Positions 1-19,214 of a stretch of DNA of 64,000 bases are shown here, piece after piece. Position 1 is the stretch's first letter, and the number at the start of each line of letters is the position of its first letter. This DNA is from Polyangia bacterium (lineage in GTDB: Bacteria > Myxococcota_A > Polyangia > Palsa-1104 > JAEUJZ01). Made by a program: the position numbers and the translations under genes. The stretch covers positions 43,387 through 107,386 of the forward strand of contig JBGAUT010000016.1 in NCBI GenBank assembly GCA_044228505.1, written 5' to 3'. The notes under the pieces were generated by a model. The model was not told the DNA's origin. It saw nothing but the letters and a program-made list of their open reading frames with translations, and made no database searches.

Positions 1-504
1 TGTGTGATGGTGGTGCAGCATCTTCCTGTCGGTTTTGCCGACCACTTTGCATCATTTCTGCGGGTGCGAATCCAGCTTCCGGTGGAAGTACCGAACCACC
101 GTTTGGCGATCGTGGCAGGGAAGGTGATAGTTGCTCCTGATGATGCACACTTGGTGATCGGAACTCACGGTCTATGCCAGCCCCTGCACTCTGCTGCGGT
201 TCGTGGACATCGTCCCTCCATTGATCTTCTGTTCGAGTCGATGGCACGCTTCTATGGAGCAGCGAGTGTTGGTGTGGTTCTCAGCGGAATAGGGAATGAT
301 GGCACGGTCGGGCTGCGCGCCATTCAGAAGAGTGGCGGATTGACCGTTTGTCAGGATGGTGAAAGTGCGGCAGTCAACGGCATGCCACGGGCCGCCAGCG
401 ATAGCGGGGCCGCCGCATTTTGTCAAACTCCCAGAGAGATCATTCAGACTCTACTTCGCGTAGGTTCTCGGAACAGAGAGTCAGGAGGACTTCATGGAAC
501 CTGA
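1..504 (+). CDS. cheB: protein-glutamate methylesterase CheB, C-terminal catalytic domain; 5' end cut by window edge
   Basis: Open frame continues from base 1. Contains GVVLSGIGNDGTVGL...GGLTVCQDGESAAVNGMPRAA, the CheB methylesterase active-site region. Confidence 0.75.
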   Translation, partial: CVMVVQHLPVGFADHFASFLRVRIQLPVEVPNHRLAIVAGKVIVAPDDAHLVIGTHGLCQPLHSAAVRGHRPSIDLLFESMARFYGAASVGVVLSGIGNDGTVGLRAIQKSGGLTVCQDGESAAVNGMPRAASDSGAAAFCQTPREIIQTLLRVGSRNRESGGLHGT

Positions 505-1849: not shown

Positions 1850-2213
1850 AGTACTGCTGGTCGACGACAGTGAGATCTGTCGAGAGACTGCGAAGCTCAT
1901 GCTAGATGACTACGGCTTTGATGTCATCGCACTCGACTCACCGATAGGATTTAGTGTTCGAATGCGCGAGCACAAGCCAGACGTGGCCTTGATTGACGTG
2001 AGTATGCCTGCTCTGAACGGTACACACTTGGTCGAGATCGCGCATCGCCATGGCAACAAAGGAGTCTGCCCCATCATCTTGTTTTCAGGCCGTAGTCGTC
2101 GTGAATTGGACACTCTGGCCCGTCAGTGTGGAGCGGATGGAGTGATCTCGAAGTCTGATGACTGGCCTACCATCGCGAGACTTCTGACCGAGTACCTGCG
2201 TCGTGCGCGTTAG
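1830..2213 (+). CDS. response regulator receiver domain protein (CheY-like)
   Basis: KVLLVDDS...DVALIDVSMPALNGTHLV...ILFSG: single REC domain with conserved Asp pocket. Overlaps the cheR stop. Confidence 0.8.
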   Translation: MTNRRFKVLLVDDSEICRETAKLMLDDYGFDVIALDSPIGFSVRMREHKPDVALIDVSMPALNGTHLVEIAHRHGNKGVCPIILFSGRSRRELDTLARQCGADGVISKSDDWPTIARLLTEYLRRAR

Positions 2214-2544
2214 GGTCAATTCCTACTGATCGATCCTGCAAAAATCCATACGATAGGTTCCGTCAGCACAGGTGGGCGAGTTTCCCGCAGAAGTGCTTCT
2301 CCGGAAACCGTTCGCGAAGATCCTCTGTCGTCAGTAGGGTTCCTCTTTTGCGGACTGGCAAGGGTTGCTGGCAAAACTTGCCGGGTTGCAAGTTTGGAGA
2401 TCCTTGCTAGCAAGCACTTTGCGTCGGGAACGTCTAACTTGGCTGCCCCATCGGAGCATCAGAGCGGTGGCACAGATTTCGCTTTTGAATCTACTTGTCC
2501 TCCATCGCTTACCAATCCTTAGTGACTTGAAAGGGACCGCTACC

Positions 2545-4407
2545 ATGGCCAAGAGAACACCGATCCTGACCTGCTTCGGACTACTCCTTTGCACTGCAGC
2601 AGCTGGATGTTCTGCCTCGTCGAGTGGGGCGGATGCAATTGCTCCGGTGAATTCCTCCAGCACTGCCGACCGGGCCATCGCGGAGGCAGACATCATTGCG
2701 CTTGATAGCGGCAGGCTCTATGCACTCTCTGCGGCAGGGACGGTCTCTGTGGTAGACGTTTCAGTTCCTAGTCAGCTAGCGCTGCTTGGACAAACGAGAA
2801 TGGCGGGTGAGCCGTTTGAGATGTACCGCAGGGGTGATTTCCTGATCACCATGTGGAATGGATCGTTTTCCGCAACTGGAACCGCGAATCCACCGCTCCC
2901 CGAGCCAAGCAGCACTCGCTATGTTCCACCGCCTCCCCGCGATCCGAACTCCGGTGCTGCGGTCGTGGTGCTCGACGTTCGCGATCCGTCACGAATTCGT
3001 CCGGTGGCAACGTTTCCAGTTCCCGGCGAGTTAGCCGATTCTCGAATCGTGGGCGATGTGTTGTACCTTGCGACCTACCAAAACGCCAAGTGTTACAATT
3101 GTGGTGATACCCAGCGTACTGTGGTTACCAGCTTCGATGTGAAGAACACTCTGTCGCTTCGTCGGGTCGACCAGGTTGTCTTTAAGAGCAATGCACCAGA
3201 GTCTTTCAATTTACCCTGGGGTTCGAACTGGAAGCGGAGTCTGTTTGTCACCAATGAGCGTCTCTACGTTGGCGGACATGCTGACCTTGACCCGCGTCTG
3301 TACGGAGATTCCGCTCAAGCGGCAAAGGAAGGAATCATCGACGTACTTGATGTGACGGATCCCGGAGGTCGACTACAACTTGGCGCTCGGATTGAAGTGG
3401 CTGGAGCGGTACTCAGTCGCTGGCAAATGGAAGAGCGTGATGGTGTGCTGCGGGTCATTAGCCAGCGCGGAGCAGGGCGCACGGGAAATGGTCAGGGAAT
3501 GCCGCAGGTCGACACGTATTCGATCGTGAACACCAAGACCTATCTACCGCTCGGCCACACGTCGATCAAACTGCCTCGGCAAGAAGGTCTGCGCACCGTC
3601 CGTTTTGACAAAGATCGCGCCTATGCCATTACCTACAATCAGACCGATCCACTGTTTACCATCGATCTGAAGGATCCCGCTGTGCCCATGGTTCGGGGTG
3701 AGCTAACCATGCCAGGCTTTATGTACTACCTGGAACCATACGGAGATCGGTTGATTGGTCTGGGAGTCGACCGCGATGACCCGCGAGGAAGCCTGAACGT
3801 CTCTCTGTTCGATGTCAGCAACCTAGACCGACCAAAAATGATCAGCCGGGTTCCATTTGGTACTCGCTCTGTGGGCGAAGACTACGTGGTGATCAACTAC
3901 GAGCTGCCTGAAGATCAGGATCGAATTCAAAAGGCTTTTCGTGTGTTCCCAGATGGCCTCGTTGCCGTTCCCTACTCTGATGTGCGCACCTACTACTCCG
4001 GTGATACTTGTGATTCACTACGGAGTGGAATTCAGTTGATGGACTGGTCCGGAGATTCTTTGGTGAAGCGGGCATTCCTCCCTGTCAAAGGGAATCCTCG
4101 TCGAGCTATTGAGCTGGGAACCGAACTGCTGGCGGTGTCGGATGCTACGGTGAGCTCGTTCTCTTTGGTGGACCATGGCGTTGCCAAGAAGACCGCTGAT
4201 GTGACGATTGGAACCTGCACTCCGCGTGTTTTGCCTGAAAACTATGGTTTTGATGGAGAGGGAGACTACTACGGCTTCGGCCTGTTTGGTTGCACGGTGG
4301 GCGGTCCTACTGTACGGCCTGCACAAGGTGCGGGTGCCGCCGTAGTGTTGCTGTTTGGCCTCCTGCTCCGTTTGATCGCTCGTCGCAAGTCATCCCTCCG
4401 TGCTTGA
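2545..4407 (+). CDS. secreted beta-propeller-like lipoprotein with C-terminal MYXO-CTERM-like sorting tail
   Basis: ATG at 2545 gives MAKRTPILTCFGLLLCTAAAGCS, a lipoprotein signal. The C-terminus is GC...GAGAAVVLLFGLLLRLIARRKSS: Gly/Cys, a hydrophobic helix, then an Arg-rich tail. Confidence 0.6.
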   Translation: MAKRTPILTCFGLLLCTAAAGCSASSSGADAIAPVNSSSTADRAIAEADIIALDSGRLYALSAAGTVSVVDVSVPSQLALLGQTRMAGEPFEMYRRGDFLITMWNGSFSATGTANPPLPEPSSTRYVPPPPRDPNSGAAVVVLDVRDPSRIRPVATFPVPGELADSRIVGDVLYLATYQNAKCYNCGDTQRTVVTSFDVKNTLSLRRVDQVVFKSNAPESFNLPWGSNWKRSLFVTNERLYVGGHADLDPRLYGDSAQAAKEGIIDVLDVTDPGGRLQLGARIEVAGAVLSRWQMEERDGVLRVISQRGAGRTGNGQGMPQVDTYSIVNTKTYLPLGHTSIKLPRQEGLRTVRFDKDRAYAITYNQTDPLFTIDLKDPAVPMVRGELTMPGFMYYLEPYGDRLIGLGVDRDDPRGSLNVSLFDVSNLDRPKMISRVPFGTRSVGEDYVVINYELPEDQDRIQKAFRVFPDGLVAVPYSDVRTYYSGDTCDSLRSGIQLMDWSGDSLVKRAFLPVKGNPRRAIELGTELLAVSDATVSSFSLVDHGVAKKTADVTIGTCTPRVLPENYGFDGEGDYYGFGLFGCTVGGPTVRPAQGAGAAVVLLFGLLLRLIARRKSSLRA

Positions 4408-4546
4408 TTCTGCTCGCCGGTTTCAGCAGACCGGCAGCGCTTGCCTGGAAAATCAGCCACGATGACAGGCCGAGCCGCTTCACCGCTTCCATCGAATCTG
4501 CTCTAACGATATTGTCCGCGACACTGGCTCAACGTACAGTGCCGCC

Positions 4547-5659
4547 ATGTTGGAACTGCAACACACCGACAAAGCCGTTGAGAGCCCAGATTTGTCTCCG
4601 ATTTTCGTGATTGGAACGGGTCGATCGGGAACCACCCTGTTGCGGCAGATGTTGAACGCGCATCCCCGCATTCACATCACACACGAAGCTGCATTCTACA
4701 GCTATGCGCAGCACATGCCAGCGGGTTCATCCGTGGATGAATGGCTGGAGCGTTACTTCGAGACGTTCTCATTTGCGTGGATGCATTTGGATCCACGCGA
4801 GGTTCGCGAGGCGCTGCCAAGGGGTCTATCAAAGGACCAGATGCGCGAGGTGTATCTCACCATCATGAGACTGCAAGCGCGACAGCGGGGCAAGGTGCGC
4901 TTCGGTGAAAAGAATCCTCTCGATACCCACAATCTCCCGCGTATTTTTTCGGACTTTCCGGATGCCAGGGTGATCTGCATCATGCGCGATCCTAGACCGA
5001 CGGTACTGTCGTTCAATCGGATGCCATTTGGCACAACCAGTACGATGCTCAACGCGCAGTTGTGTCGCATTCAGTACGAACACATCAAGCCGTACCTGAA
5101 CCGTATCTTGGAAGTACGGCTGGAAGACCTAACTGCCGAGCCCATGCAGACCATGCGGTCCATCCTGCATTTTGTGGGCGAGCCGTGGGATGACGTGGTG
5201 CTTGATCATGTGAAGCACTCGCAGACCGATGATGTACCGCCACTGCCGTGGTTTGTTGGGGCAACTCAACGAGCACCGAATCAGCGTGAGAGCCGAGGCC
5301 GCGATGAGTTAGATCCGGTGTGGACCCGGATCGTCGAATGGGTGAATCAGGAATCGATGACCCACTATGGGTACGAACGGGCCGTGCTTGTGAAGGAACC
5401 GTCGCGTTGGGAGTATGTCTGGGCATTTTGCAAAGACATAAGAGGCATGGCGGAGGCTGCATATCGTCTGTTGTCCATGAAGCGGCTGCTCGATCGTCAC
5501 TTCCAAGGTCGTGAGCGACTCGACCCTCAACGCGGAATGGAAGAGAACGTGCAGCTTAACCCAGCAGCCTGGAGCAACTATCCACAGTTCGAGATGCCGC
5601 AAGTTCCCCGACCAGCGGCCCTCCTGCCCCGCACGATTCAAACGTCTCAAGGCCAATGA
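4547..5659 (+). CDS. sulfotransferase family protein
   Basis: N-terminal IFVIGTGRSGTTLL PAPS-binding P-loop typical of sulfotransferases; ~370 aa. Confidence 0.65.
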   Translation: MLELQHTDKAVESPDLSPIFVIGTGRSGTTLLRQMLNAHPRIHITHEAAFYSYAQHMPAGSSVDEWLERYFETFSFAWMHLDPREVREALPRGLSKDQMREVYLTIMRLQARQRGKVRFGEKNPLDTHNLPRIFSDFPDARVICIMRDPRPTVLSFNRMPFGTTSTMLNAQLCRIQYEHIKPYLNRILEVRLEDLTAEPMQTMRSILHFVGEPWDDVVLDHVKHSQTDDVPPLPWFVGATQRAPNQRESRGRDELDPVWTRIVEWVNQESMTHYGYERAVLVKEPSRWEYVWAFCKDIRGMAEAAYRLLSMKRLLDRHFQGRERLDPQRGMEENVQLNPAAWSNYPQFEMPQVPRPAALLPRTIQTSQGQ

Positions 5660-5726
5660 ATCGGTAAGGTAGCAGGGTTGTGCCATCGGAACTTCGGCTG
5701 AGAGGAGTCGAGAGGAGTCGAGAGGA

Positions 5727-7073
5727 ATGACGATGAAGAGCAGTCTGCAGCGAGCCGGATCACCGAGAAGTCTTCTATCGCAGCTTATTTCTGCACCTGA
5801 TTTGGTACAAACCGTGCGGGCGCTTCCGGCTCCGGCCTTTTCTGCTTTGATTCGACACGTTGGCGTGGAAGATGCGGGAGAGCTTGTCGCACTGGCGACG
5901 AAAGAGCAGCTCGTGACCGCGTTCGATGAGGATCTCTTTGTCAACACCCGGCCCGGCGAAAGGGAGACGTTCGATGGGGCCCGCTTTGCGGTCTGGCTTG
6001 AAGTCCTTCTCGAAGCTGGTGATGAGGTCGCTGCCCGTCGAGTTGCCGATCTTTCGGAAGACTTTGTGGTGCAGGCGATTTCAAGGCTCATCGTGGTACT
6101 GGATCATGATGCGCTGCTTGGCCGCATGAACGAACGAGGACGCGATGTAGAGTACGCAGACAAGGCGATCGAGCGTGCTCTGTCCGAGGAGATTGATGGG
6201 TATTTGCTGCTCTGTCGGGAGTACGATGGTTGGGACGCGGTGATGTCGCTCATCCTGGCGCTGGATCGGAATCAACGTGATTTTTTGGAACGGATCCTGA
6301 GCCGATGTGCAGCGCTGGCCAGTGGATACCTCGATGATCTAAGTGTGCTCACGGGCATATTGTCCGCAGAGGACTCGCTCAGTGAAGATGTCGAAGCTGA
6401 GCGTGAGGATCGTCGCAGCCAGCAAGGCTACGTAGAGCCTCGTTCCGCCCGAGCGTTCCTTGCACTTGCGAGGCAGCCCGGCGCTTCTGATCGAAAATGG
6501 AGCGAACGCGATCCGATGACGCAGTCCTATTTTCGTGAACTGGCGCGGGCCTCGGCGGCTCTCCCCACGACTGTGCCTTCGGTGGAATCGGCCTCTCCCA
6601 AACTCATGGCTTTGCTCGCTGAAGTTGGAGTTGTGCAGCGTGCACCAGGTCGTGCGTTACTCGGAGCCGCTGCTCCGACGTCGATGAATGCACAGAGTCC
6701 GCTGCTTGCGGCGTTGCAGCTACTGTTTGAACAGAATCCGGAGTGCTTCCATCTGCGAATGGAGGAACTGGCCTATCTTTCTAATGTCCTTGTGGCTGGG
6801 GCCAACAACAAGGGGGCTCGATTCCGTGCAGCGGAAGCGGCCGAAGCGGCGCTGGCGACCTGTCGTTTGGGGGCGCAACTGGTTCACGCGGAACGGAGCG
6901 ATGCTTCGCAGCGTTTGTCTCAGCCCGTGACACCGCAGGCCCTTTGTCAGGTGCTCAAGGCCTATGGTGCCGACCTGCTGTTTCGCAGAGCCAGCAGCAT
7001 GCTGGTCACCCATCATCCCCGCTCACCAGGATTCCTTCGATCTGAGGCAGAACTCGACGAACTGGTAAAATGA
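5727..7073 (+). CDS. hypothetical protein (448 aa)
   Basis: Long ORF with a triple GAGAGGAGTC repeat immediately upstream acting as an SD-like motif. No recognisable motif. Confidence 0.5.
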   Translation: MTMKSSLQRAGSPRSLLSQLISAPDLVQTVRALPAPAFSALIRHVGVEDAGELVALATKEQLVTAFDEDLFVNTRPGERETFDGARFAVWLEVLLEAGDEVAARRVADLSEDFVVQAISRLIVVLDHDALLGRMNERGRDVEYADKAIERALSEEIDGYLLLCREYDGWDAVMSLILALDRNQRDFLERILSRCAALASGYLDDLSVLTGILSAEDSLSEDVEAEREDRRSQQGYVEPRSARAFLALARQPGASDRKWSERDPMTQSYFRELARASAALPTTVPSVESASPKLMALLAEVGVVQRAPGRALLGAAAPTSMNAQSPLLAALQLLFEQNPECFHLRMEELAYLSNVLVAGANNKGARFRAAEAAEAALATCRLGAQLVHAERSDASQRLSQPVTPQALCQVLKAYGADLLFRRASSMLVTHHPRSPGFLRSEAELDELVK

Positions 7074-7096
7074 AGCTGTCTGAATCGTTGCTGTGA

Positions 7097-7711
7097 TTGG
7101 CAGAGTGGATTAGGCTACGGTCCACTTTGTCTGAACAGCGCTCAATCTCGCCCGATGAGATGTTTGACCTGCCGATCCGTCGTTACGACGGGGCAGTCTA
7201 CTTGGTAAGCACGCCGCAAGATCGTGAGCGAGCATTGGCCGACATCAGGACAGAGAGCGTAGTTGGTTTTGACACCGAGACACGACCTGCTTTTCGAAAA
7301 GGAGAGAGCTATCTTCCTTGCCTGGCGCAGGTTGCAACTGCACGAGCGGTCTATTTGTTCCAGCTTCAGCAGCAGGATTTTTCTGCGGAAATGCGAGAGC
7401 TACTGGCCTCCGAGCGAGTCGCCAAAGCAGGGGTTGCTCTGGCCAATGATCTTCGCGGGTTAAAGAAGCTGATCGAGTTCGATGCTCGATCCATCGTCGA
7501 CCTGGATCGGGTGGCGCGACACCATGGATTCAAGCAGCCGGGAGTGCGCAACCTCGCAGGTCTGCTTCTCGGTTTTCGGATTCCCAAAGGAACCAAGACT
7601 TCAAACTGGGCCGCACGACAATTGTCTCCCCAGCAGATTTTGTATGCAGCTACGGATGCGTGGGCGTGTCGGGAGCTATACCTTCGGTTCTGTGAGCTCC
7701 GCCTGGTCTAA
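7097..7711 (+). CDS. 3'-5' exonuclease domain protein (RNase D-like, DEDD family)
   Basis: VGFDTETRP (Exo I motif) and YAATDAWA (Exo III). Track start is TTG 7097; ATG 7160 (MFDLPIRRY) is an alternative start. Confidence 0.65.
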   Translation: MAEWIRLRSTLSEQRSISPDEMFDLPIRRYDGAVYLVSTPQDRERALADIRTESVVGFDTETRPAFRKGESYLPCLAQVATARAVYLFQLQQQDFSAEMRELLASERVAKAGVALANDLRGLKKLIEFDARSIVDLDRVARHHGFKQPGVRNLAGLLLGFRIPKGTKTSNWAARQLSPQQILYAATDAWACRELYLRFCELRLV

Positions 7712-7785
7712 GCCTGGCCATTAGGTGCCCAACTTGGCCTGAGAATCCCATTGTTTGGACGCGGACCGTATGCGATCCTAGCGAG

Positions 7786-8961
7786 GTGAGACTCTGGGGA
7801 CCATACAAGCCCACACCTCCTAAAACGCAGTGGCGACTGGTGATCTCGGAGCACGGCTCGCGACGCTCGGTCTGTTTCAATTCAGAAACCGAGGCACTGC
7901 ATTTTCGAGAGAATCTGCGGGCACAAGCGGCGGATCTTGCAACTCATTCGCTGACCGCAAGACAGGCGATTGAAGAGTACATCTCGGAAAAAGAGCGAGA
8001 GTGTGTGGCGGTCTCTGTGCTTACGGTGAGGGAACGCCTGATGCGATTCCTTCCGCTCGATACGCCGCTCCGTTACTTCGATGACGTGCTTGCTCAGCAG
8101 ATCTATGATCGCGAGGTCCAGCGGATTACCAAGCGAAGGAAGCCTGTGGCTGCCGCAACCCATCGCGCAACCCTTCGAACCACGAAAGAGTTTTGGCGAT
8201 GGTTGGTGATGCGGAAGTACGTGAATCACAATCCCTGGGCGCAGATTCTACCTGTAGGAAGACTGAATCATGGCAAGCCGCAGCCCACCATTGGCCAGGC
8301 GCAGAGGCTGGAGTCCTATTTGGTGGCTGGTGCGCAGGCGAATGAGGGCAAGCTGGCGCTGCTTCTGCAACTATATTGCGGACTCCGCAGCGGGGAAGTA
8401 TTGGCACTGAAGGTTCGAGACATCGAGCAGGTCGTCATTGCAGGAGAACGGGTGATCCAAGTCTGCGTCGACCGTGGAAAAACCAAGCATGCGCGGCGAG
8501 CGGCTCGCGTCGCACCCCGAGTCGGAGAACTCCTCATTGATTACATCAAGGGTCGACCAGCGGAGCAGAGAGTGTTTGCTGCCGATCGCTCCGCTCCGCC
8601 GAAAGGTGCATGGCTTCACAAGAGACTGGCTCTGATCTGTCAGGAGCTCGGATTGCCACAGTACTGTCCGCATAGCCTGCGCGGCCTCAACGCAACGATT
8701 GCGCTGGAGGGCGGTGCTACGATGGAAGCCATTGCCAAGGTTCTCGGTCATGGCAGCACTGCCGTGACGGCCAAGCACTATGCCAAGCCGGACAGCGTCT
8801 TAAATGCCAGCCTTCGAAGGGTTGCGGAAGTCCTGTCGAGTGCGTCTTCCTACGTGGAAGAGTCGGTGGTATCCGAAGAAGCGGCGGTGTCTGCGGTTGT
8901 GAGTTCGCTCAGTCCCGGTCAGCTCGCGCTGCTGCGCAAGGTAATCCTTCAGCACGGTTGA
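7786..8961 (+). CDS. site-specific tyrosine recombinase / phage-type integrase
   Basis: C-terminal catalytic domain with LRSGEVLAL (Arg), HSLRG (H-x-x-R), LGHGS (His) and HYAKP (Tyr nucleophile). Starts at GTG 7786. Confidence 0.75.
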   Translation: MRLWGPYKPTPPKTQWRLVISEHGSRRSVCFNSETEALHFRENLRAQAADLATHSLTARQAIEEYISEKERECVAVSVLTVRERLMRFLPLDTPLRYFDDVLAQQIYDREVQRITKRRKPVAAATHRATLRTTKEFWRWLVMRKYVNHNPWAQILPVGRLNHGKPQPTIGQAQRLESYLVAGAQANEGKLALLLQLYCGLRSGEVLALKVRDIEQVVIAGERVIQVCVDRGKTKHARRAARVAPRVGELLIDYIKGRPAEQRVFAADRSAPPKGAWLHKRLALICQELGLPQYCPHSLRGLNATIALEGGATMEAIAKVLGHGSTAVTAKHYAKPDSVLNASLRRVAEVLSSASSYVEESVVSEEAAVSAVVSSLSPGQLALLRKVILQHG

Positions 8962-9147
8962 CCCTGCGTGTTCAGCTACTGCCGCAACCTCGCTGTCGGA
9001 TGGCGCATACAATGTCATGACGCATCGTGCATGTCAGACGGCAGTGACTGCGATGCCGAACGCAAAGTATCAGAGCTTCCATCGATCTGCTTGTAACATA
9101 GAGCGTGAGAGTGCGCGCCACGGGCCGCCCTATCCGGGTCAGCCATC

Positions 9148-9588
9148 ATGCAAGTCGAATCACCAGAAGCACGGACGTGGATCGGGCAGATCATCGGGAA
9201 CCATCGCCTGGTCCGTGTGCTGGGACGTGGCGGTATGGGAATGGTGTTCGAAGCGGTTCACGAGGGAGTGCTAGGGCGGGCAGCGATCAAGATTCTGCGT
9301 CCCGATGTCACCAGCCGAACGGATGTGACGACTCGCTTCTTCAATGAAGCCCGTGCTGCCAATGCCGTCCAGCATCCAGGCATTGTGCGCATCTTCGATT
9401 GTGGATTTACGGAGTCCGGGGTCGCCTATCTGTCGATGGAGTTCTTGGAAGGGGAGTCGCTTCGATCGCGACTGGCCAGGGTGAGGCAGCTACCCACCAA
9501 GACCGCGCTGCGAGTAGCACGTCAGATTGCCTCAGCGCTTGCAGCCGCGCATCGAGTGAAAATCATCCATCGAGATCTCAAACCCGAT
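9148..9588 (+). pseudogene. Hanks-type Ser/Thr protein kinase, N-terminal fragment (subdomains I-VIb) interrupted after HRDLKPD
   Basis: LGRGGMGMVF (Gly loop), AAIKIL (Lys), HPGIVRIF, SMEFLEGESL, IIHRDLKPD. The frame then reads 10 unrelated codons to a stop at 9621. Confidence 0.7.
9581..9588. repeat. 8-bp direct repeat AACCCGAT (left copy) flanking the insertion in the kinase gene
   Basis: An identical octamer recurs at 13847-13854, exactly where kinase homology resumes. Confidence 0.6.
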
Positions 9589-9754
9589 CATCTTCGCTTT
9601 CGTCTGGCGGCGTTGGGATAGGTTCCATTGTGCGAGTGATAGGGCAGGGAACAAAGTTCGGAAACGATCTGCGCGCTCTCGGTCTGGCACAATTGCGTAG
9701 AGGTCACCGATTGTGGCATCAAAGTACGGTACTAAACCAACGATGGAGACAAAG

Positions 9755-11218
9755 ATGAGTGACACCAAGAAGCTGACTACCGCAGCGGGGGCACCAGTTG
9801 TCGACAACCAGAACTCGATGACCGCCGGTCCGCGAGGACCTCTTTTGATGCAAGACATCTGGTTCCTGGAGAAGCTTGCGCATTTCGACCGCGAAGTGAT
9901 TCCAGAGCGTCGCATGCATGCCAAGGGGTCGAGTGCGTATGGATCATTTACCGTAACACACGACATCTCTAAGTACACCCGAGCGAAGATATTCGCTCAG
10001 GTTGGCAAGAAGACCGATCTGTTTGTTCGCTTCTCCACCGTCGCTGGAGAGCGAGGTGCTGCGGATGCAGAGCGCGACATTCGGGGCTTTGCGATCAAGT
10101 TCTATACCGAGGAAGGAAACTGGGATCTGGTTGGCAACAACACGCCGGTATTCTTCCTTCGTGACCCTCTCAAATTTCCAGACCTAAACCATGCGGTGAA
10201 GCGCGATCCGCGAACCAACTTGCGCAGTGCTCGCAACAATTGGGACTTCTGGACCTCGCTACCGGAGGCGCTGCACCAGATTACCATGACCATGAGTGAG
10301 CGAGGAATTCCCTATTCCTATCGACACATGCATGGATTTGGGAGTCACACCTTCAGCTTGATCAACTCCCAGAACGAGCGCTTCTGGGTGAAGTTCCATC
10401 TGCGGACGCAGCAAGGGATCAAGAATCTGTCTGATGCAGAGGCCGAGGCGATCATTGGCAAGGATCGCGAGAGTCACCAGCGAGATCTGTTTGACAGCAT
10501 TGAGAGACGGGACTTTCCTCGCTGGACGCTGTTCATTCAGGTGATGCCGGAACGGGAAGCCGCCACGTGTCCGTACAACCCGTTTGACCTTACCAAAGTC
10601 TGGCTGCACAAGGACTATCCGCTCATCGAAGTGGGCGTGATGGAGCTGAACCGCAATCCCGAAAACTACTTTGCAGAGGTTGAACAGTCGGCGTTCAATC
10701 CGGCGAACGTGGTGCCCGGAATCGGTTTTTCACCAGATAAGATGCTTCAGGGACGACTCTTTTCGTACGGCGATGCCCAGCGCTATCGGCTTGGGGTGAA
10801 TCATCAGTCCATTCCGGTGAATGCGCCTCGCTGTCCGGTCCATAGCTACCATCGTGATGGCGCGATGCGAGTCGATGGAAACTTCGGAGGTCAGCTTGGC
10901 TATGAACCGAATAGCTATGGACAGTGGCAACAGCAGCCGGGCTTTGCGGAACCTCCGCTCTCGCTGGAGGGGTCCGCAGATCACTGGAACCATCGTCAGG
11001 ATGAAGACTACTACTCCCAGCCAGGCTTGCTGTTCCGGCTCATGACGGGAAACCAGCAGCAGACACTGTTTGATAACACTGCGCGAGCGATGGGTGATGC
11101 ACCAAGAGAGATCAAGCTTCGTCACATCGGCAATTGTCTGAAGGCCGACCCCGCGTATGGAGCAGGTGTCGCAAAGGCACTCGGCCTGCCTCTGAGCGAA
11201 ACGCGCAGCTCATCCTAA
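9755..11218 (+). CDS. katA: monofunctional heme catalase (clade-3-like)
   Basis: [63 protein letters not shown] and the heme-ligand region [22 protein letters not shown] precedes ATG 9755; an in-frame ATG at 9713 is also possible. Confidence 0.85.
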
Positions 11219-11239
11219 CGCCCGTGGATCGACTCCGCA

Positions 11240-13699
11240 TCAACACTTGATCCGTTTCATATCGGGATCGTACAGCGGTCGCAGAGACGCGATCGCTGGA
11301 TAGCGCTGCCCGGCAATGTCTACTTCCCACATGCCTCGATCGAGATACTCTTGATCGAGCGCTTGTCCCGCTTCGATCATGGCCAATCCGACGGCTCCTC
11401 CGATGGTGAAGCCATACGAGGCGGCGCGAATGTATCCGACCGGGTGGCCGTTGCGGTAGACAATCTCAGCATGGAACATCAGTGGCTCCGGATCTTTCAC
11501 CAGCACTTGCACCAGGCGTCGCGTTAGCGGTCCTTCTGCTTTTTTGGCGAGCACTGCATCGCGTCCCAGAAATCCACCCGGCTTCTTTAGATCTACCGCA
11601 AAGCCAAGACCTGCCTCCAAGACCGAGTCGGTGTTGTCGATATCGTGACCATAATCACGGTATCCCTTTTCCATGCGCAAGCTGGCCAGCGCCTTGAGTC
11701 CGGCATGTCGTAAACCGAATTCTGATCCGGTTTCTACAATCCGATCATAGACATGGGGGGCTTGCTCGGAGGGGATGTAGAGTTCGTAGCCCAGCTCACC
11801 CAGATAGGTGATGCGGATACAGAGTGCCCGTGCAAAGCCGATGTCGATTTCGCGGGCGGTGCGGAATGGGAATGCCGTATTGCTAAGATCGGTGGTGGTC
11901 ACCCGTTGCAGCAGCTCTCGCGAGCGAGGTCCTTGAATGTTGATCTGCGCGTAGCCAGAGGTCACATCGGTTACAAAGGCGTGTGCGTGCGCCGGGACAT
12001 GGCGACGCATCCAGGTCTCTGCATGCCGATGAGCGGTGTCTGAGGCTACGACCCAGTATCGCTCATCATCGAGCTTGGTAACGGTCAGGTCCGCTTCGAG
12101 CGTGCCGCCCTCGTTGAGCCACTGCGTGTAGGTGATAAGCCCGCTTGGTCCGTCGACTTGGTTGGCCGACAGATAATTGAGAAGGGCTCCTGCGTCCCGA
12201 CCTTGCACCAAGAACTTCGCCATGAACGACATGTCCATCAAGATCACGCCTTCACGGGTCGCTTGATGCTCTGCTTGCCAGTAGGGAAACCAGTTCTGTC
12301 TGCCAAAGGACAATCGCTCGACCTTTGGCTCGATGCCAGGCGGCGCATACCAGTCCGGTCCTTCCCAACCACTGACGTCCTTAAAGTATGCGCCCTGCGC
12401 GGCCAGCCGATCATAGATGGCCGATCTCTTACAGCCGCGTGCGGTCTGCATGGAGCGCGTAGGATAGTGGCACTGATACACCATTCCAAGCGATTCCACC
12501 GTACGGGTGCGACGGTACTCCGGGTTCGACTGGTATGTGTGGAAGCGATCGATGTGCATGCCGGTGACATCACAGTCGGGTCGACCGTTGATGATCCAAT
12601 GGGCCAACACCCGTCCCATGCCACCACCCGTGATGATTCCGATCGAGTTGAGTCCGGCAGCCACAAAGTAGTTCTTTAGTTCTGGTGCTTCTCCGACCAC
12701 CGGACGCAGATCCGCGGTGAAGCTCTCCGGTCCGCAGAAGAATTTTTTGACTCCTGCATCTAGCGAGATGGGAATTCGCTCCATTGCCTTTTGCAGGTAT
12801 GGACCCATTCGCTCCCAGTCCGGACTGATCTCTCCAAAAGAAAAGTCGTCCGGAATACCACCGACTTTCCACGGAGCACAGACTGGCTCGAACAGACCGA
12901 CAAGCAGGCCGCCGACTTCCTCTCGATAGTATCCGTAGGAGCTGGGGTCTTCGAGAACCGGCAGAGAGGCGGTGAGCTGGGGGATCTTCTCTGTGATGAG
13001 ATAGTAGTGTTCTGCAGCCTGCAATGGAACGTTGACCCCGGCTTGGGCTCCGAGCTGACGTGCCCACATTCCGGCGCAGTTTACCACGTATTCTGCTTCG
13101 ATGTTTCCGTAGGGAGTCTGGACGCCAGTGACCACACCACGCTTGGATAGGAGTCCGATGGCAGGCACTCCTTCCAGGATGGTTGCACCTTGCATTCGGG
13201 CCCCTTTGGCAAGTGCCATTGTGATGTCAACGGGATTGGCACGGCCATCTTCCTTGACGTAGAAACCAGCCAAAATGTCGTCGGTGCGGGCCAATGGAAA
13301 GAGCTGTTCTACTTCCTTAGCGGAAATCTCATGGACATCCACTCCGCAGTGTCGATTGAACGCAGAGACACGCCGGTATTCCTCCAATCGGTCTTCATCC
13401 GCTGCGACTTCGATGAATCCGACCTGCTTGAATCCGGTCGATAGTCCAGTTTCTGCTTCGAGCCGCAGGTACAGATCGCGGGAGTACTTCCTCATCTCAG
13501 TCGATGTCTCAGAGGTCGAACCAAACGTCACGATGAGCCCTGCCGCATGCCAGGTCGTGCCAGAGGTGAGCCGATCCCGCTCGAGTACGACTACGTCCTT
13601 CCATCCCATGTGGGCCAGGTGGTATGCGACGGAGGTTCCGATGATTCCACCGCCAATGACGACAACGCGAGCGCGAGCAGGAAGGTTTGTGGGGTACAT
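11240..13699 (-). CDS. FAD-dependent oxidoreductase fused to a GcvT-like folate-binding domain: dimethylglycine/sarcosine dehydrogenase or dimethylglycine oxidase family (819 aa)
   Basis: N-terminal VVVIGGGIIGTSVAYHL Rossmann dinucleotide motif and TTWHAAGL (the covalent-FAD His region of this family). The C-terminal ~350 aa resemble the aminomethyltransferase (GcvT) fold. The size matches DMGDH/DMGO. Confidence 0.8.
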   Translation of the reverse strand: MYPTNLPARARVVVIGGGIIGTSVAYHLAHMGWKDVVVLERDRLTSGTTWHAAGLIVTFGSTSETSTEMRKYSRDLYLRLEAETGLSTGFKQVGFIEVAADEDRLEEYRRVSAFNRHCGVDVHEISAKEVEQLFPLARTDDILAGFYVKEDGRANPVDITMALAKGARMQGATILEGVPAIGLLSKRGVVTGVQTPYGNIEAEYVVNCAGMWARQLGAQAGVNVPLQAAEHYYLITEKIPQLTASLPVLEDPSSYGYYREEVGGLLVGLFEPVCAPWKVGGIPDDFSFGEISPDWERMGPYLQKAMERIPISLDAGVKKFFCGPESFTADLRPVVGEAPELKNYFVAAGLNSIGIITGGGMGRVLAHWIINGRPDCDVTGMHIDRFHTYQSNPEYRRTRTVESLGMVYQCHYPTRSMQTARGCKRSAIYDRLAAQGAYFKDVSGWEGPDWYAPPGIEPKVERLSFGRQNWFPYWQAEHQATREGVILMDMSFMAKFLVQGRDAGALLNYLSANQVDGPSGLITYTQWLNEGGTLEADLTVTKLDDERYWVVASDTAHRHAETWMRRHVPAHAHAFVTDVTSGYAQINIQGPRSRELLQRVTTTDLSNTAFPFRTAREIDIGFARALCIRITYLGELGYELYIPSEQAPHVYDRIVETGSEFGLRHAGLKALASLRMEKGYRDYGHDIDNTDSVLEAGLGFAVDLKKPGGFLGRDAVLAKKAEGPLTRRLVQVLVKDPEPLMFHAEIVYRNGHPVGYIRAASYGFTIGGAVGLAMIEAGQALDQEYLDRGMWEVDIAGQRYPAIASLRPLYDPDMKRIKC

Positions 13700-13846
13700 A
13701 AAAGGGAGAATAATCTCAGGAGACCTGTGCTCGGCAAGCCCTTGTGTCTGAGCACCGCACGAAGGAACCCATTCTTCCTTTCCCCGCTCATTCCTTGTTC
13801 CTCGTTCTCCGGAGATTTCTCGTCCAATCCTGCCGATTTGTGAGTC

Positions 13847-13854
13847 AACCCGAT
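13847..13854. repeat. 8-bp direct repeat AACCCGAT (right copy)
   Basis: Identical to 9581-9588; encodes the PD of HRDLKPDN in the resumed kinase frame. Confidence 0.6.
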
Positions 13855-15357
13855 AACATCATGCTGGTTCCTGACCAGGACTTCCCTGGTGGAGAGCGGG
13901 TTAAGATCCTCGACTTCGGAATTGCCAAGATGGCCGAGGGCTTAAGTGCTCAGCCACTTCGCACCAAGAGCGACGTACTCATGGGCACTCCGACCTATAT
14001 GGCACCGGAGCAGTGTCGTGGTGCGAAACTCGCGACCGACCGATCCGATGTGTATTCACTCGGGGTCATTTTGTATCAGATGCTTGCGGGGTATCCGCCA
14101 TTTTTGGGGGCCTCGATGGGCGACTTGATCGCGATGCATTTGATGGATGAGCCGCCACGACTAACGGACGCCGTGCCTGAGATCAGTCCCAAGATTGCAA
14201 AGCTCGCCTATGCGATGCTCGCCAAAAAGCCTGATTCTCGACCCTCGATGGAGAAGGCACAAAAGACGCTGCTCCGATTGGAAGAGGAAGCCCAACTGGC
14301 ACCGCCGCTACCGGCAGTGCAGCGAGACATCGAGACGTCGTACGGTGACTCTCAGCACGGCACTGTGGATGTTCCGGATGGGCATCCGAACAGGATTCCT
14401 GCGGATGCAAACGAGCTGAAGGTGCCAGTACCCAATCGGGAAGGAGCGACTGACAAACGTCCGTCGGAAATGAAAGCCGCAGGGTCCTCGCGTCCGTTGC
14501 CGAGCCGTATCGTAACAGACTCTCGTCACGTACATATTCCCAAGCGAACACTTCAAGTCATTATCGCGGCCTTCGTTGCCAGTACACTACTGGTGACGAC
14601 TGGGATTCTGCTGGGAACACAGGCCCGGCGTCCGATAGACCGCAGTGCACGCTCGGTTCTTCCGGAACCGGAACACAGAGACGATGTTCCAGCGTCCTCG
14701 GTTGCACCGCAATCGGCCAGACCAACACCGGAAGTCGCGGCCAGTAGGCCCATTCCAGCGATTCCAGGGGATGTCCCTCCTTCGAGCAAAGCAGACAAAG
14801 GGGGCGCTCCACATCGTGAGCCCACCTTGACCGCCAGCAAACATGTAGACAGCCCGAACGCGACAGGCAGCAAGGTTCATTCTAGTGGTGCGGCGATTGA
14901 AGAGAAGCCGGTCGCTATGGTTGAGGAGAAGCCGGTCAGTGTGGTGGAGCAAAAGCCCCCCACGCAGAGCCCGTCCTCGGTCAGTCCTGAGCAAGCTGTT
15001 CCGGCACAGCCTCCGACGGTGATTGCGCCTCCTCCTCAGGTTGCTCCCGTTCCTAGACCTGTTCCTGTGCCGGAGCGTACTGTCGATGATCCGTTTGATC
15101 CGCTGCGCACCGCAGAGGACTTCATCTTGCAAGGGAACTATCGTCGCGCAATGGATCTGGCCACGCAGTTTGGAAAGCAAGATCCGATGCGTGCTTGGGA
15201 AATCTACGGCCGTGCAGCGTGTGGGATGCGGCTGCAGGACCGGGCGAGTCGGGCGATGCGTGAACTGCAGCAGCGGCATGAAGACCGCCGCATTCAGTCT
15301 CTGCTCGCGTATTGCCGACTTCACAAGCTACCGCTATCTGCGCCTGACTCGCAGTAG
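13847..15357 (+). pseudogene. Ser/Thr protein kinase C-terminal fragment (subdomains VIb-XI) with Pro-rich linker, one TM helix and a small C-terminal helical domain
   Basis: PDNIMLV...ILDFGIAK...GTPTYMAPEQ...DVYSLGVILYQMLAGYPPF, then a P/A/S-rich region, the TM helix IIAAFVASTLLVTTGILLG, and a C-terminal TPR-like tail. The nearest in-frame upstream Met (13744) lies in non-kinase sequence. Confidence 0.65.
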
Positions 15358-15752
15358 TTCGTTCCTAAGGCTTGCGATCAGTGCCCGAGCGTTGTCCTTC
15401 TGCAATCGGCAGCCCGGCCATCTGCTCCTTGCTCATGGCTCCCGAGTAATCGCTGCTTTGGCCATACGGTCGGTCCAGTCGGTGTAGTTTCGCCGTCCTA
15501 TGGTCTAGGCCAGACCGCGACCGTGAAATTGGGCACCAGCACTGGGCTGAGTGTTCTGCAGGTCATCACGAGATCTCATCCGGTTCTCTCCCCGTCGACG
15601 CGAATCGAGTATCAGCACCAAGCAGCCGAAGTTGCGTAGATTCTCAGTAGTTTGGCCGACTCAGGTGATTGCAGAGCGGCAGTGTGTCGCCACTTCCTGA
15701 ACAGTTCCCCTGCAGGATTTGAGGGCGATTTTCTCGTCGCAGGTATTCTTGC

Positions 15753-17801
15753 CTAATGTCCTCGATGGACGATTCCCTGGCTGTGGGCAGTGTCTAGGAC
15801 CGAACAGATCTGGCGGGTCAGTGTAAGGACTCGTGCGATAGGCAGCGGTCGTGGCGCTTTGCCTTTCGGACTGATGATCTCATCGAGCGACTGCCCGTCG
15901 ATGAACTCCATCACCAAGTAGAACAAGGCACCACTCACATTGCCGTGATCGTAGATAAAGACGCTGTTTGGGTGATTGATTTGAGAGGATAGTTTGGCTT
16001 CCCGCTGAAACAGTTCGATGGCATCCGGGGCGACCATTGCTGACGGTGAGAGTACTTTGACCGCTGCTTCCCTGCCGAGCTCCGTGTGGCGAGCCTTGTA
16101 GACCATGCCCATCCCGCCTTCTCCCAGTCGGGCGTAGCAAGTGTACTGACCCACCGTGAAGGGATCGATCTCGCCTCTGCTGGACTTGGCTTCCTCGGCT
16201 TTGGTCGTGGGAAAGGTGTCGGCTTCGCTCCCAGCTCGCTGGGTCTTGGCATTCTGTAACACCAGCAGGCGGTCGCGCCGAATCACCCACAGCAGCAGAC
16301 CGGCACCCAGGGCCGCTGCCAGCGCGATGATGAGCAGTACGATTCCCAAGAACAGCTTCTTCTTGTCTGCGTGCGGAGCAGGTTGTTGCTGCGCCGTCTC
16401 GGGGGAAACGCTCCCGCCCCCGCCCGACCCAGGACTCGGGACCATGAGGCGGTTCTGCGTGGACTCAGCTTGAGCAGGTTCCGCTGGTGGCTCCACTTGA
16501 TCGGATTTTTGCTTTGATGACTCGGTGAGCTTGATGCGCTCATCGTCGTCGCGGCTGTCTGGACCAGGACCACGTACTCTCTGTTTCTTTCCTGCTTGTG
16601 CGGTGCTGGGCGCGGTCTTCGCGGGGGCCTTCTTCAGTTGTTTGGCTTCGGCAGGTACTTGCTTGTGCCCCGTGACCATCGGTCTCGGGGGCGCGGCGGC
16701 ACCAGGGGCGCTAGGGGCTCTCGGTGCTTCAGGGGGCGGGCTTTCGATGGCAAATGAATCAGTTTCGCCTGCGCGTGAAGGTGGTGCCGCACCTTGCTGG
16801 ACGGACGCGGCTTCTGCTCGTGGGCGCGCAGGGGCTCTCGTTGTGCTTTTGGGTTTGAACTTGCGTTTGATGGGTGCGGTGGTCTTTTCTTCTTCTGGTG
16901 CTGGCTGTGCTTTCTTGTCGGCGAGAGGCATCGCCTCCTCAGACGCCTTCCCGATAGGACGAGAAGCCTCCAGCGCGGGCGGCGGGGCTCCGGGTTGGAC
17001 TGCGGCGGGGGCACTGGCTTGCGGTGCGTGCTCGGGGCTGCTGCGCAGAAGCAGCAATGAGCCCGAGGCCAGCAGCAGCACCACCGCAACAAGCAGCGCC
17101 GCGACAGCAGATTTGCTCTTGCGGGCCTGCGCTGGCGAAGCTGGACCTTTTGAACCCTCCGCAAACGCTGAAGCCCGCATCGGAGAGCTCGGTACGGACC
17201 TGGCCGCGCTGTCCTCTTGTGATGCCGACGATGCAGCTGGGACCGCGTGCTGTGCGGTATCGAGCAGCTTTGCAACCAGCTCGTCCAACGATCGTGGTCG
17301 TGCGGCAGGTTGCTTATCGAGCGCATGCAATAGCGTCTGCGCAAGCTCGGCGGACAGCTCGGGTCGTAGGCTGCGCGGATTCTCGGGCCGCTCTAGCAGA
17401 ACCTTGATCCGGATGGCGGCGGGGCTGCTTCCGGCAAACGGAGGCTGTCCGGTTAGCAGATGGTAAGCGACCGCAGCGACGTGGTAGACCGTGCTCGCCA
17501 CTGCCTCGGGCTTGCCTGCAAAGACCTCTGGCGCGACGTAGGCTGCGACCAAATCGACAGATGGATCTTTGGCTGCCTCGGGCCCAGCAAGGGTGATGGC
17601 AGAAAGCTCACCGATGGATTCGTCCCCGGTCGCTGAGGTGACCAGTTTGACCTGCGATGGGTGAACAAGCCGTGCCTTGCCATCGGTAAGCTGCGATGAC
17701 AGCGTCTTACATAGCTCGCTGACCAGACGAAGTACACGCGGAATATCGTGACTTCCGGCCAGCGAAGCCATCGTTTGCGCTTCGCTTTCGCTGCTCGACA
17801 T
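15753..17801 (-). CDS. anomalous 682-aa ORF: degenerate kinase C-lobe (pseudokinase-like) at the N-terminus, Pro/Ala-rich region, one TM helix, then a canonical kinase N-lobe ending ...GIVHRGH-stop
   Basis: The C-terminal part reads LGEGGMGMVYKARH...AVKVL...HPNSV...VMEFIDGQSL...IVHRG then stop, and nothing kinase-like follows in any frame. The N-terminal part reads ARLVHPSQVKL (catalytic D, K and N all replaced), then YVAPEV and LLTGQPPFAG. A possible TM helix is LFLGIVLLIIALAAALGAGLLLWVI. Confidence 0.5.
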   Translation of the reverse strand: MSSSESEAQTMASLAGSHDIPRVLRLVSELCKTLSSQLTDGKARLVHPSQVKLVTSATGDESIGELSAITLAGPEAAKDPSVDLVAAYVAPEVFAGKPEAVASTVYHVAAVAYHLLTGQPPFAGSSPAAIRIKVLLERPENPRSLRPELSAELAQTLLHALDKQPAARPRSLDELVAKLLDTAQHAVPAASSASQEDSAARSVPSSPMRASAFAEGSKGPASPAQARKSKSAVAALLVAVVLLLASGSLLLLRSSPEHAPQASAPAAVQPGAPPPALEASRPIGKASEEAMPLADKKAQPAPEEEKTTAPIKRKFKPKSTTRAPARPRAEAASVQQGAAPPSRAGETDSFAIESPPPEAPRAPSAPGAAAPPRPMVTGHKQVPAEAKQLKKAPAKTAPSTAQAGKKQRVRGPGPDSRDDDERIKLTESSKQKSDQVEPPAEPAQAESTQNRLMVPSPGSGGGGSVSPETAQQQPAPHADKKKLFLGIVLLIIALAAALGAGLLLWVIRRDRLLVLQNAKTQRAGSEADTFPTTKAEEAKSSRGEIDPFTVGQYTCYARLGEGGMGMVYKARHTELGREAAVKVLSPSAMVAPDAIELFQREAKLSSQINHPNSVFIYDHGNVSGALFYLVMEFIDGQSLDEIISPKGKAPRPLPIARVLTLTRQICSVLDTAHSQGIVHRGH

Positions 17802-17882
17802 CCAATCCCCCTGGCCCCTATGGTGCCATACGGCTGAGTTGGCAACTCACAGATCGCTACCCAGCGATGGCCTGCGTGGGGG

Positions 17883-18821: not shown

Positions 18822-18950
18822 CGTGTTCTTGCAATGTACCGCGAAACGTTGCGTCGACTCTGCGCTACAAACCTGCGCTGTCGGTGCAGTGTGGCCAATT
18901 CGATGTCCGTGACACGCAGGGAATTGAGCGTCGCTCCGGGCCGAAGGAAC

Positions 18951-19214
18951 TCAGTGCAGGTTTGGGAGCGCTGACCAAACCTGCGTCGAGAATACCACCA
19001 GCTTGGATACCAGATACGGACCAGTCACAAACAGGGCTACCATTCCCAATAGCAACCGCACGGCGACCGGCAGCGAGGAGTCCGTGATGCCCATCCGCGC
19101 TTGGAGCCACGACGTGACAACGGCGGATAGCACCGCGACCAGCAACACAGGTAGGCTGCACAGCACAGCCAGCCACAGACCCGATGACAGCAGCGGCAAT
19201 AGCGACTCGCTCAT
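18951..19214 (-). CDS. fliQ: type III secretion / flagellar export apparatus protein SctS (FliQ family)
   Basis: 87 aa with two TM helices. PVLLVAVLSAVVTSWLQARMGITDSSLPVAVRLLLGMVALFVTGPYL aligns with the FliQ core (LLVALVTGLIISILQAATQINEMTLSFIPKI...AGPWML). A 4-bp overlap with the upstream gene indicates coupling. Confidence 0.75.
   Translation of the reverse strand: MSESLLPLLSSGLWLAVLCSLPVLLVAVLSAVVTSWLQARMGITDSSLPVAVRLLLGMVALFVTGPYLVSKLVVFSTQVWSALPNLH

Follow-up and report, generated by a model that had tools for sequence, protein, structure and literature searches.

A membrane Ser/Thr kinase gene of uncultured Polyangia split by a probably excisable, integrase-bearing island of about 23 kb

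The stretch analyzed here, 64,000 nucleotides (nt) of Polyangia bacterium assembly GCA_044228505.1 (contig JBGAUT010000016.1, positions 43,387 to 107,386; hereafter the window), carries two interrupted protein kinase genes, kinase A on the plus strand and kinase B on the minus strand. Our subject is kinase B, represented in the window by an open reading frame (ORF) of 682 amino acids (aa), and the element that cuts it, which we term E_B; a second insert, E_A, is nested in kinase A. Public contigs are designated by L-numbers and proteins by P-numbers. An earlier note on this DNA had described the 682-aa ORF as a single minus-strand frame in which a degenerate kinase C-lobe comes first and a canonical kinase N-lobe last, and the ORF list, Pfam, a profile match to PknB, and AlphaFold2 (AF2) modeling with Foldseek searches all bear this description out (Table 1).

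As far as it extends, the C-terminal domain is an ordinary kinase N-lobe. Residues 554-680 match positions 2-122 of the 263-position Pfam Pkinase profile (81.7 bits) and include the Gly-rich loop (GEGGMGMVYKA), the VAIK lysine (AAVKVL), and the alpha-C glutamate (FQREAKL), after which come Gly, His, and a stop codon. The halt after HRG that the note had reported is therefore real and reads HRG-H-stop in full. The HRDxKxxN, DFG, and APE motifs of an active Hanks-type kinase do not occur together in this polypeptide, and a product without the catalytic Asp, the DFG motif, and the activation loop cannot act as a kinase.

The N-terminal ~185 aa correspond to a degenerate kinase C-lobe running from alpha-E to alpha-I. 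Its catalytic loop reads ARLVHPSQV, with HRD changed to ARL and the loop Lys and Asn lost; DFG is lost as well, and APE is kept. Searched alone, the N-terminal 200 aa match Pfam Pkinase positions 161-253 at E=1.5e-5, which is under the gathering score. A profile of eight family members matches residues 116-280 of M. tuberculosis PknB at E=3e-19, with DGKARLVHPSQV aligned to NGIIHRDVKPANI, and an AF2 model of the domain (predicted local distance difference test score, pLDDT, of 90) has best Foldseek matches that are all PknB kinase domains, with template modeling scores of 0.73-0.77. The region is thus kinase-derived, a point on which the note had left room for doubt, and it combines a kinase fold, of the C-lobe only, with the loss of catalytic residues that defines a pseudokinase domain. 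No N-lobe precedes it because the ORF begins 82 bp after the upstream gene. The Pro/Ala-rich linker sits between two transmembrane (TM) helices; the hydrophobic helix that the note had placed after the Pro/Ala-rich region exists, but it is one of two. PknB is the best solved relative both of the N-terminal domain (by its C-lobe only) and of the C-terminal N-lobe. However, PknB combines a single complete kinase domain with extracellular PASTA repeats, whereas kinase B and its family have an extra, dead orphan C-lobe at the N-terminus and two TM helices.

Table 1 Features of the kinase A and kinase B locus, in window coordinates
Feature	Coordinates	Strand	Evidence or remark
682-aa ORF	15753..17801	(-)	ORF list, Pfam; ATG start; identical entry in public data is P0001
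Orphan pseudokinase C-lobe, aa 1-185	17247..17801	(-)	PknB profile match, AF2/Foldseek
Hydrophobic helix 1, aa 232-252	17046..17108	(-)	read from sequence
Hydrophobic helix 2, aa 483-507	16281..16355	(-)	just upstream of kinase domain
Canonical kinase N-lobe through alpha-E and His-Arg, aa 546-680	15762..16166	(-)	Pfam, dN/dS
attL core, 19-bp direct repeat CAGGGAATCGTCCATCGAG (codons QGIVHR + G)	15761..15779	(-)	junction alignments; second copy is attR, beyond the window
Element arm beside attL, GACATTAGGC...GCGACGAGAAAATCGC...GCAGGGGAAC	15700..15760	(-)	source of Gly-His-stop
E_B, right-hand 15.8 kb	1..15760	.	L021 alignment; left 7.5 kb lie beyond the window
E_B gene order: CheW, 118 aa, 458 aa, DUF4154, MCP, CheA, CheB, CheR, CheY, beta-propeller, sulfotransferase, DUF6178, 3'-5' exonuclease, integrase, kinase A
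Tyrosine recombinase (phage-type integrase; 373 aa in relatives)	7786..8961	(+)	Pfam Phage_integrase E=1.3e-13; phrog_1 integrase E=9e-31
Kinase A 5' part (N-lobe through HRDLKPD)	9148..9588	(+)	ORF continues to 9621 in insert DNA
Insert E_A, 4.27 kb	9589..13846	.	flanked by direct repeat AACCCGAT(AAxAT) at 9581-9588 and 13847-13854
Catalase in E_A	9713..11218	(+)
Dimethylglycine-dehydrogenase-like gene in E_A	11240..13699	(-)
Kinase A 3' part (from PDNIML: C-lobe, TM helix, tail)	13847..15357	(+)	Pfam Pkinase positions 126-259; collinear with intact A of L003, L009

A protein search returned truncated orthologues at 90% and 75% identity (P0002, P0004, and P0005), all ending ...GIVHRGH as P0001 does, together with full-length relatives of 831 aa (P0003), 788 aa (P0008), and 858 aa (P0010). 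The full-length proteins have the MSSSE... pseudo-C-lobe, the two TM helices, and the N-lobe in common with the truncated ones and then continue through HRDLKPHNVMV...DFG...SPE to a complete kinase. P0005 equals P0003 in sequence as far as the His-Arg, and at this point the truncated form reads GIVHRGH and the rejoined form GIVHRDLKPHNVMV. Distant Polyangia and Blastocatellia homologues have the identical domain layout. On this evidence, the layout of family B is an orphan pseudo-C-lobe, a TM helix, the Pro/Ala-rich linker, a second TM helix, and a complete Hanks-type kinase, and its two kinase-derived domains belong to one old, conserved architecture rather than to a recent joining. Found in Myxococcota and Blastocatellia, this layout represents an uncharacterized kinase family in its own right. 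The family B N-lobe is unusually conserved, with >80% aa identity among proteins that are ~50% identical overall.

Three proposals of the note fail against these comparisons. The two alpha-E helices had been taken as the mark of two joined paralogues, but both domains belong to the single architecture of the full-length relatives. The permuted lobe order had been ascribed to a rearrangement; because uninterrupted relatives (P0003, P0008, P0010, and the Blastocatellia and Polyangia homologues) show the same order followed by a full second kinase domain, it was not created in that way, and a circularly permuted or rearranged kinase, with alpha-E present in both pieces, was rejected. Finally, the N-lobe is not a close paralogue of the neighboring split kinase, to which it is only 36% identical over 144 aa.

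The remainder of kinase B is absent from the entire window, as determined by tblastn with the C-lobe of full-length relatives as the query, in agreement with the note's statement that no kinase sequence lies downstream in any frame. When the window and the truncated-B contigs L002-L010 were compared with the intact genes of L001 and L011, nucleotide homology between intact and interrupted B was found to end exactly after CATCGAG, the His-Arg-Asp codons, at window position 15761. The 682-aa ORF is composed of the first 679 codons (5' part) of kinase gene B, which lie on the side of the left attachment site (attL), plus Gly-His-stop from element DNA. Past the junction, three species share a homologous sequence, GACATTAGGC...CGACGAGAAxATC..., with 83-95% nt identity, and this arm is conserved in the window, L003, L009, and a further contig, L041, that is described below. 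In L002-L010, which derive from three species and at least four projects, truncated B is followed by inverted kinase A and then by Phage_integrase, 3'-5' exonuclease, sulfotransferase, beta-propeller, CheY, CheR, and CheB genes. Intact B (L001, L011, and L158) is followed by a gene for a methyl-accepting chemotaxis protein (MCP) and a 72-aa ORF; a FIST gene is next in L001 and L011, and L158 stops inside the following ORF.

By tracing the MCP gene, we located the missing C-lobe on contigs L013 and L014, from samples that also yielded truncated contigs. There, an inverted CheW gene, a spacer of ~400 bp, and ...TCTCCCTCG + CAGGGAATTGTCCATCGAG + ACCTGAAGCC lead into a 152-aa C-lobe. The corresponding junction (attR) consists of a CheW-side arm, CAGGGAATyGTCCATCGAG, and ACCTnAAGCC in L013, L014, L015, L021, L071, and L072, and beyond it lie the 152-aa C-lobe, the MCP gene, the 72-aa ORF, and the FIST gene, the last three being the genes that trail intact B. 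The detached C-lobe (L071, L016) holds the HRDLKPHNVMV...DFG...SPE that the window ORF is missing and would regain only through excision.

The two ends define E_B. Contig L021 is 99.75% identical to window 1..9574 and continues to attR and the first bases of the B C-lobe; it covers the left 17 kb of the element, from attR to within kinase A, and window 9575..15760 completes it to attL, giving a whole length of ~23.3 kb. The element holds a complete che cluster, and the integrase is the only recombinase among its genes. NCBIfam Xer-like matches to this integrase are weak and far under cut-offs. The integrase lies ~2.5 kb from attL in E_B copies with intact kinase A, and ~6.8 kb from attL in the window because of the nested E_A insert. 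No phage families besides the integrase were found in E_B with PHROG, no transposase is present among its genes, and no exact match to attL exists in IMG/VR. We rejected a provirus on the basis of the PHROG and IMG/VR results, and an insertion sequence or transposon because E_B encodes no transposase and terminal inverted repeats were not reported for it. Against a transposon-type target duplication, the 19 repeated bp belong to the coding sequence of the target and recur in the attP-type junction (see below). A 79-aa ORF beside attL in L002 was considered as an excisionase and rejected; it has no Pfam match, and L002 and the window cannot be aligned in this region. One indel within the island concerns the 448-aa DUF6178 gene (5689-7033), which lies between the sulfotransferase and exonuclease genes in the window and L021 and is absent there in L003 and L009.

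To read the junctions, public metagenome contigs were scanned for the 19-mer and then aligned, and junctions were taken from the assembled contigs, which derive from uncultured Myxococcales/Polyangia metagenome-assembled genomes, several from activated sludge. The 19-bp core, CAGGGAATyGTCCATCGAG, is a direct repeat at both ends of E_B, and all four junction types are present in public assemblies. Besides the window, >10 contigs from three species show the attL form, among them L002-L010 and L039, and the core was aligned at attR in L013, L021, and L071. The uninterrupted site (attB) is seen in L001, which encodes the 831-aa protein, in L066, and in L075, a 134-kb contig. An attP-type junction, composed of the kinase A 3' end, the attL arm, the core, and the CheW arm, is present in one contig, L041. 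The attB contig L001 and the interrupted contig L003 are 99.94% identical, with 2 substitutions in 3,577 bp. Taken as sequence arrangements, the four junction types are the signature of site-specific integration and excision. Other contigs terminate exactly at the 19-bp core, at their starts (L017, L019, and L020) or at their ends (L078 and L079). These fit an assembly-graph branch with both junction forms present, but they are only suggestive of mixed populations because unrelated kinase contigs (L103 and L110) end near HRD too.

Both halves of kinase B have diverged under constraint, as expressed by the ratio of nonsynonymous (dN) to synonymous (dS) substitution rates. For the detached C-lobe, a comparison of L013 with L071, which both represent interrupted lineages, gave a dN of 0.012 and a dS of 0.58 (dN/dS 0.02). 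For the N-lobe, the window and two other species gave dN/dS values of 0.007-0.008. From the values of 0.02 and 0.008, we conclude that B is still under selection. The pseudo-C-lobe has a dN/dS of 0.25, and the Pro/Ala-rich linker, which is periplasmic and nearly without constraint, evolves fast at about 0.6. The lobes of the element-borne kinase A have dN/dS values of 0.04-0.05 (0.04 for the 3' part), and their dS of 0.44-0.55 is similar to that of host kinase B (0.41-0.65), which fits a long co-inheritance of element and host gene. Element and host gene thus seem to have diverged in parallel, with strong constraint on the two halves of B throughout. The simplest reading of these rates would be that full-length kinase B is still made, in excised cells or in island-free strains that recombine.

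The direct repeats, the four junction types, the integrase gene, and the selection on both halves together indicate that the interruption is probably a removable one and neither a dead scar nor a new topology. We consider it highly likely that the 682-aa ORF represents the 5' portion of a gene for a membrane Ser/Thr kinase and that the island of ~23 kb interrupting it is excisable, vertically inherited, and equipped with an integrase. In the integrated state, translation of B stops two codons into the element. In the excised state, recombination of attL with attR would have rejoined the 19-bp core, restored the 831-aa kinase in frame, and freed the element as a circle. The E_B integrase would be the presumed catalyst of this reaction, the attP-type contig would represent the circle and not a tandem copy, and excision would occur often enough to matter.

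Several observations weigh against this interpretation. The attP-type junction is a single 5.9-kb contig that could be a tandem copy rather than a circle. The attB and attP forms come from different samples than the attL and attR forms, and fixed differences between island-free and island-carrying strains would give the same contigs. The constraint on the detached C-lobe could also be upheld by recombination with island-free strains. No excisionase or other recombination directionality factor was identified among the E_B genes, and E_B is without replication or transfer genes, such that an excised circle would be lost unless reintegrated. Moreover, two integrase homologues (44-47% identity) do not lie beside kinases. 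The difference in samples, the lack of replication and transfer genes, and the missing directionality factor lend themselves to a reading in which E_B is an ordinary strain-variable island that knocks out B in its carriers, with island-free strains as separate lineages and negligible excision. We regard that reading as possible but not favored. It has to accommodate a junction that is common across ~17% nt divergence with similar dS for element and host, carriers and noncarriers that differ by 2 substitutions in 3.6 kb, the existence of the attP-type junction, and an intact/split polymorphism that recurs for the nested E_A in two species. The proposal that excision is regulated as a developmental or phase-type switch, as opposed to the occasional loss of an island, is likewise only tentative.

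Alternatively, the truncated protein could itself be functional, its pseudo-C-lobe pairing with the C-terminal N-lobe to form a pseudokinase of novel topology. The ORF is indeed intact, its MSSSE N-terminus is conserved, its Gly-His-stop end is kept in four lineages, and both domains are under purifying selection. Nevertheless, none of the data call for such a product, and we judge it unlikely, as it leaves unexplained both the conservation of the detached C-lobe and the full kinase of island-free strains and distant relatives. In addition, the conserved GACATTAGGC belongs to the att arm and is conserved to the same degree in the attP-type contig, in which it is not read as an extension of B.

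Even less probable, in our estimation, is that an old insertion or rearrangement destroyed B and left the ORF as a decaying pseudogene fragment that is open by chance. An abrupt end two codons beyond the catalytic His-Arg, the absence of a nearby C-lobe, and a junction that is common to three species and therefore old are what such an event would leave. However, the low dN/dS values of the N-lobe and the detached C-lobe were accumulated over a dS of ~0.4-0.6 between interrupted lineages, an intact allele exists in a 99.9%-identical strain, and an attP-type junction exists. The rearrangement scar suggested by the note is accordingly correct insofar as there is a DNA rearrangement junction, but the scar is not dead, given the purifying selection on the C-lobe at the other end of the element and the attB and attP-type forms. 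We also rejected an inversion of 13847..15760 that would join the N-lobe (which ends at Pfam position 122) to the plus-strand C-lobe 400 bp away (which starts at position 126), because that C-lobe is the one of kinase A, collinear and intact in L003 and L009, and because the C-lobe of B differs (PHNVMV...) and lies at attR. A chimeric join at an HRD motif common to many kinase paralogues can practically be dismissed, since, although several contigs have only ~3x coverage and L103 and L110 end near HRD, one and the same junction is present in assemblies made with SPAdes, with MEGAHIT, and by Logan, across at least four projects and three species, its flanks have co-diverged on both sides, and the reciprocal attR was found independently. 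The note had held that relatives with a normal kinase at this locus would imply such an artefact; those relatives exist, but the artefact does not follow from them, as the junction recurs in >10 independent assemblies.

The neighboring plus-strand kinase is split by an insertion, as the note had stated. Kinase A is divided by E_A in the window, L002, L007, L010, and L041, but is uninterrupted in L003, where it encodes 647 aa, and in L009, where it encodes 639 aa. L002 and L003 are 99.9-100% identical except for the insert, which is flanked by a 13-bp repeat, AACCCGATAAxAT. Two species each have both the intact and the split form of kinase A, and the sequence of the insert has diverged in step with the genome, which favors precise removal over repeated insertion. 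The E_A break (HRDLKPD/N) is located in catalytic-loop codons, 14 bp downstream of the position cut in B. No recombinase of its own was found in E_A. The right arm of E_A shows homology, in register, to the arm of E_B at attL, with GAC, 19 nt, and GACGAGAAA at 25-31 nt from the junction. The plus strand of the 64 kb has just two copies of TTTCTCG, at 13816 and 15730, both at a distance of 31 nt from a junction and with TTCCCC upstream. The shared arm is directed toward the C-lobe part of the gene in A and toward the N-lobe part in B, and the catalytic-loop DNA CATCGAG-ATCTCAAA-CCCGAT is an imperfect inverted repeat. We infer that the A and B sites (CTCGATGG and CCCGATAA) may be the same sequence type read on opposite strands. 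The machinery that acts on E_B probably also produced E_A and probably removes it.

Some further observations concern the arms and the cargo of E_A. The TTTCTCG motif of both arms (13780-13846 and 15705-15760) is found inside a small hairpin-like palindrome, GCGA-TTTTCT-CGTCGC, which is possibly a protein-binding site. In L011, where B is intact, the dimethylglycine-dehydrogenase-like gene is chromosomal (17511-19979), ~5 kb downstream of B and between amylase and CoA-transferase genes; in L013, where B is split, that chromosomal slot holds a glyoxalase-family gene (8434-9210) and the dehydrogenase gene is instead inside kinase A. The E_A cargo thus seems to have been captured from the nearby chromosome. 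The kinase A tail contains a 24-nt tandem repeat of 2.5 copies (14897-14957) that encodes EEKPVxxV repeats.

Additional breaks at the two positions used in the catalytic-loop codons were observed, each on a single contig. Two of them affect B in two other species. In L157, B is cut after CACCGAG (2290-2580), with other downstream genes. In L012, B is cut after ...CATAAGATCA and then CGTCGAGAAA (12073-12300), and the same motif and register are present at the left end of the L002 A insert. An unrelated kinase in L063 is cut after HRDIKPA and followed by CGTCGAG (100-330). Two of these three breaks have a CGTCGAG(A)AA motif at a fixed distance inside the foreign DNA. Finally, in L021, which is of the window's species but from another sample, kinase A is broken (17097-17223) right after CATCGAG, the position used in B. 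The AT-rich sequence that follows, TATTTTTTACGTAATTTTTCCGACGGAAAATTT... with CGACGGAAAAT at about 20 nt, matches none of the other fetched sequences and may represent either a third element or an artefact of the contig end. In a set of 80 genome loci with 103 kinase N-lobes, a stop at HRD was confined to family B genes, two of which stop at contig ends.

A motif-targeting element family aimed at kinases may be taken from these breaks as a lead rather than as a result, and a wider kinase-targeting integrase family is unsupported, given that both homologues looked up are not beside kinases. The most elaborate model would be a programmed nested switch in which one tyrosine integrase sequentially removes E_A and E_B, rebuilding two Ser/Thr kinases and deleting a chemosensory operon. 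The integrase would use the CATCGAG-N8-CCCGAT palindrome as the core in either orientation, and related elements would target the same motif in other kinases, as in the L012, L157, L063, and L021 breaks. We consider this model improbable. If true, it would give the first example of developmental-type gene reconstitution from outside Firmicutes and cyanobacteria, as well as the first element family aimed at a conserved catalytic motif of paralogous genes.

In our literature search, we found no publication describing such an element in a kinase gene of a myxobacterium. With a direct-repeat core, a recombinase, and an empty site, E_B has the structural features of a putative excisable gene-intervening element. 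The closest parallels are skin in sigK and SPbeta in spsM of Bacillus subtilis and skin(Cd) of Clostridioides difficile, whose precise, recombinase-driven excision rebuilds an ORF (PMC4191935, PMC5025042, PMC5499854). E_B shares with these systems its large size, its integration within a protein-coding gene, an att core of short direct repeats, and an element-encoded recombinase. Unlike E_B, they are prophage-derived, employ serine recombinases (SpoIVCA and SprA) with known directionality factors, and are excised in connection with the mother cell, which differentiates terminally; E_B is non-phage, has a tyrosine integrase and a che cluster, and resides in a myxobacterial host. The gin element in gerE of Bacillus cereus ATCC 10987 is a non-prophage-like element that is excised to rebuild its gene (PMC5595907). 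E_B is similarly gene-intervening and not prophage-like, but it differs in phylum, in target gene, and in having a nested second element, which gin is without.

XisA and XisC are tyrosine recombinases. In heterocystous cyanobacteria, multiple excisions restore genes split by the nifD, fdxN, and hupL elements and the fragmented nif genes of Calothrix NIES-4101 (bioRxiv 10.1101/2023.12.11.571196). E_B resembles the cyanobacterial elements in being chromosomally inherited and non-phage, in the presence of several elements per locus, in long vertical inheritance, and in the selection on split halves. However, cyanobacterial excision is programmed in terminal heterocysts, has been demonstrated experimentally, and concerns nif and hup targets, whereas E_B is known from static junction forms and splits a signaling kinase. 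Elements of another kind are functional prophages that act as switches, and E_B has no phage genes except the integrase. One such phage regulatory switch is Listeria phi10403S in comK. In active lysogeny, reversible or conditional excision restores the host gene, as for S. aureus phi13 in hlb (PMC12519783).

What seemed an impossible kinase thus becomes a clear example of a gene divided by a probably excisable island. Site-specific interruption and reconstitution of genes, best known in endospore formers and heterocystous cyanobacteria, would be extended to uncultured Myxococcota, which also differentiate, and to a signaling kinase. Excision would rebuild one kinase at the cost of a second kinase and a full che operon and, if regulated, would amount to a switch between signaling repertoires. 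For annotation, Hanks kinase ORFs that end inside HRDLKPxN need an att-junction check before they are labeled pseudokinases or pseudogenes.

A scan of 13600-18000 with Rfam revealed nothing credible as a structured RNA in the att and intergenic region. Directly upstream of kinase B (17883-20250) are fliO, fliP, and fliQ-like genes and a serine-acetyltransferase-like (hexapeptide) gene, and this arrangement is syntenic in all relatives. In L011, the acetyltransferase-like gene is cut down to a 105-aa fragment beside an inserted pectate-lyase-fold gene. Upstream of fliO-fliP-fliQ, in a region of long ORFs that overlap on both strands, there is a 43-nt tandem repeat array of 3-3.5 copies (21375-21546).

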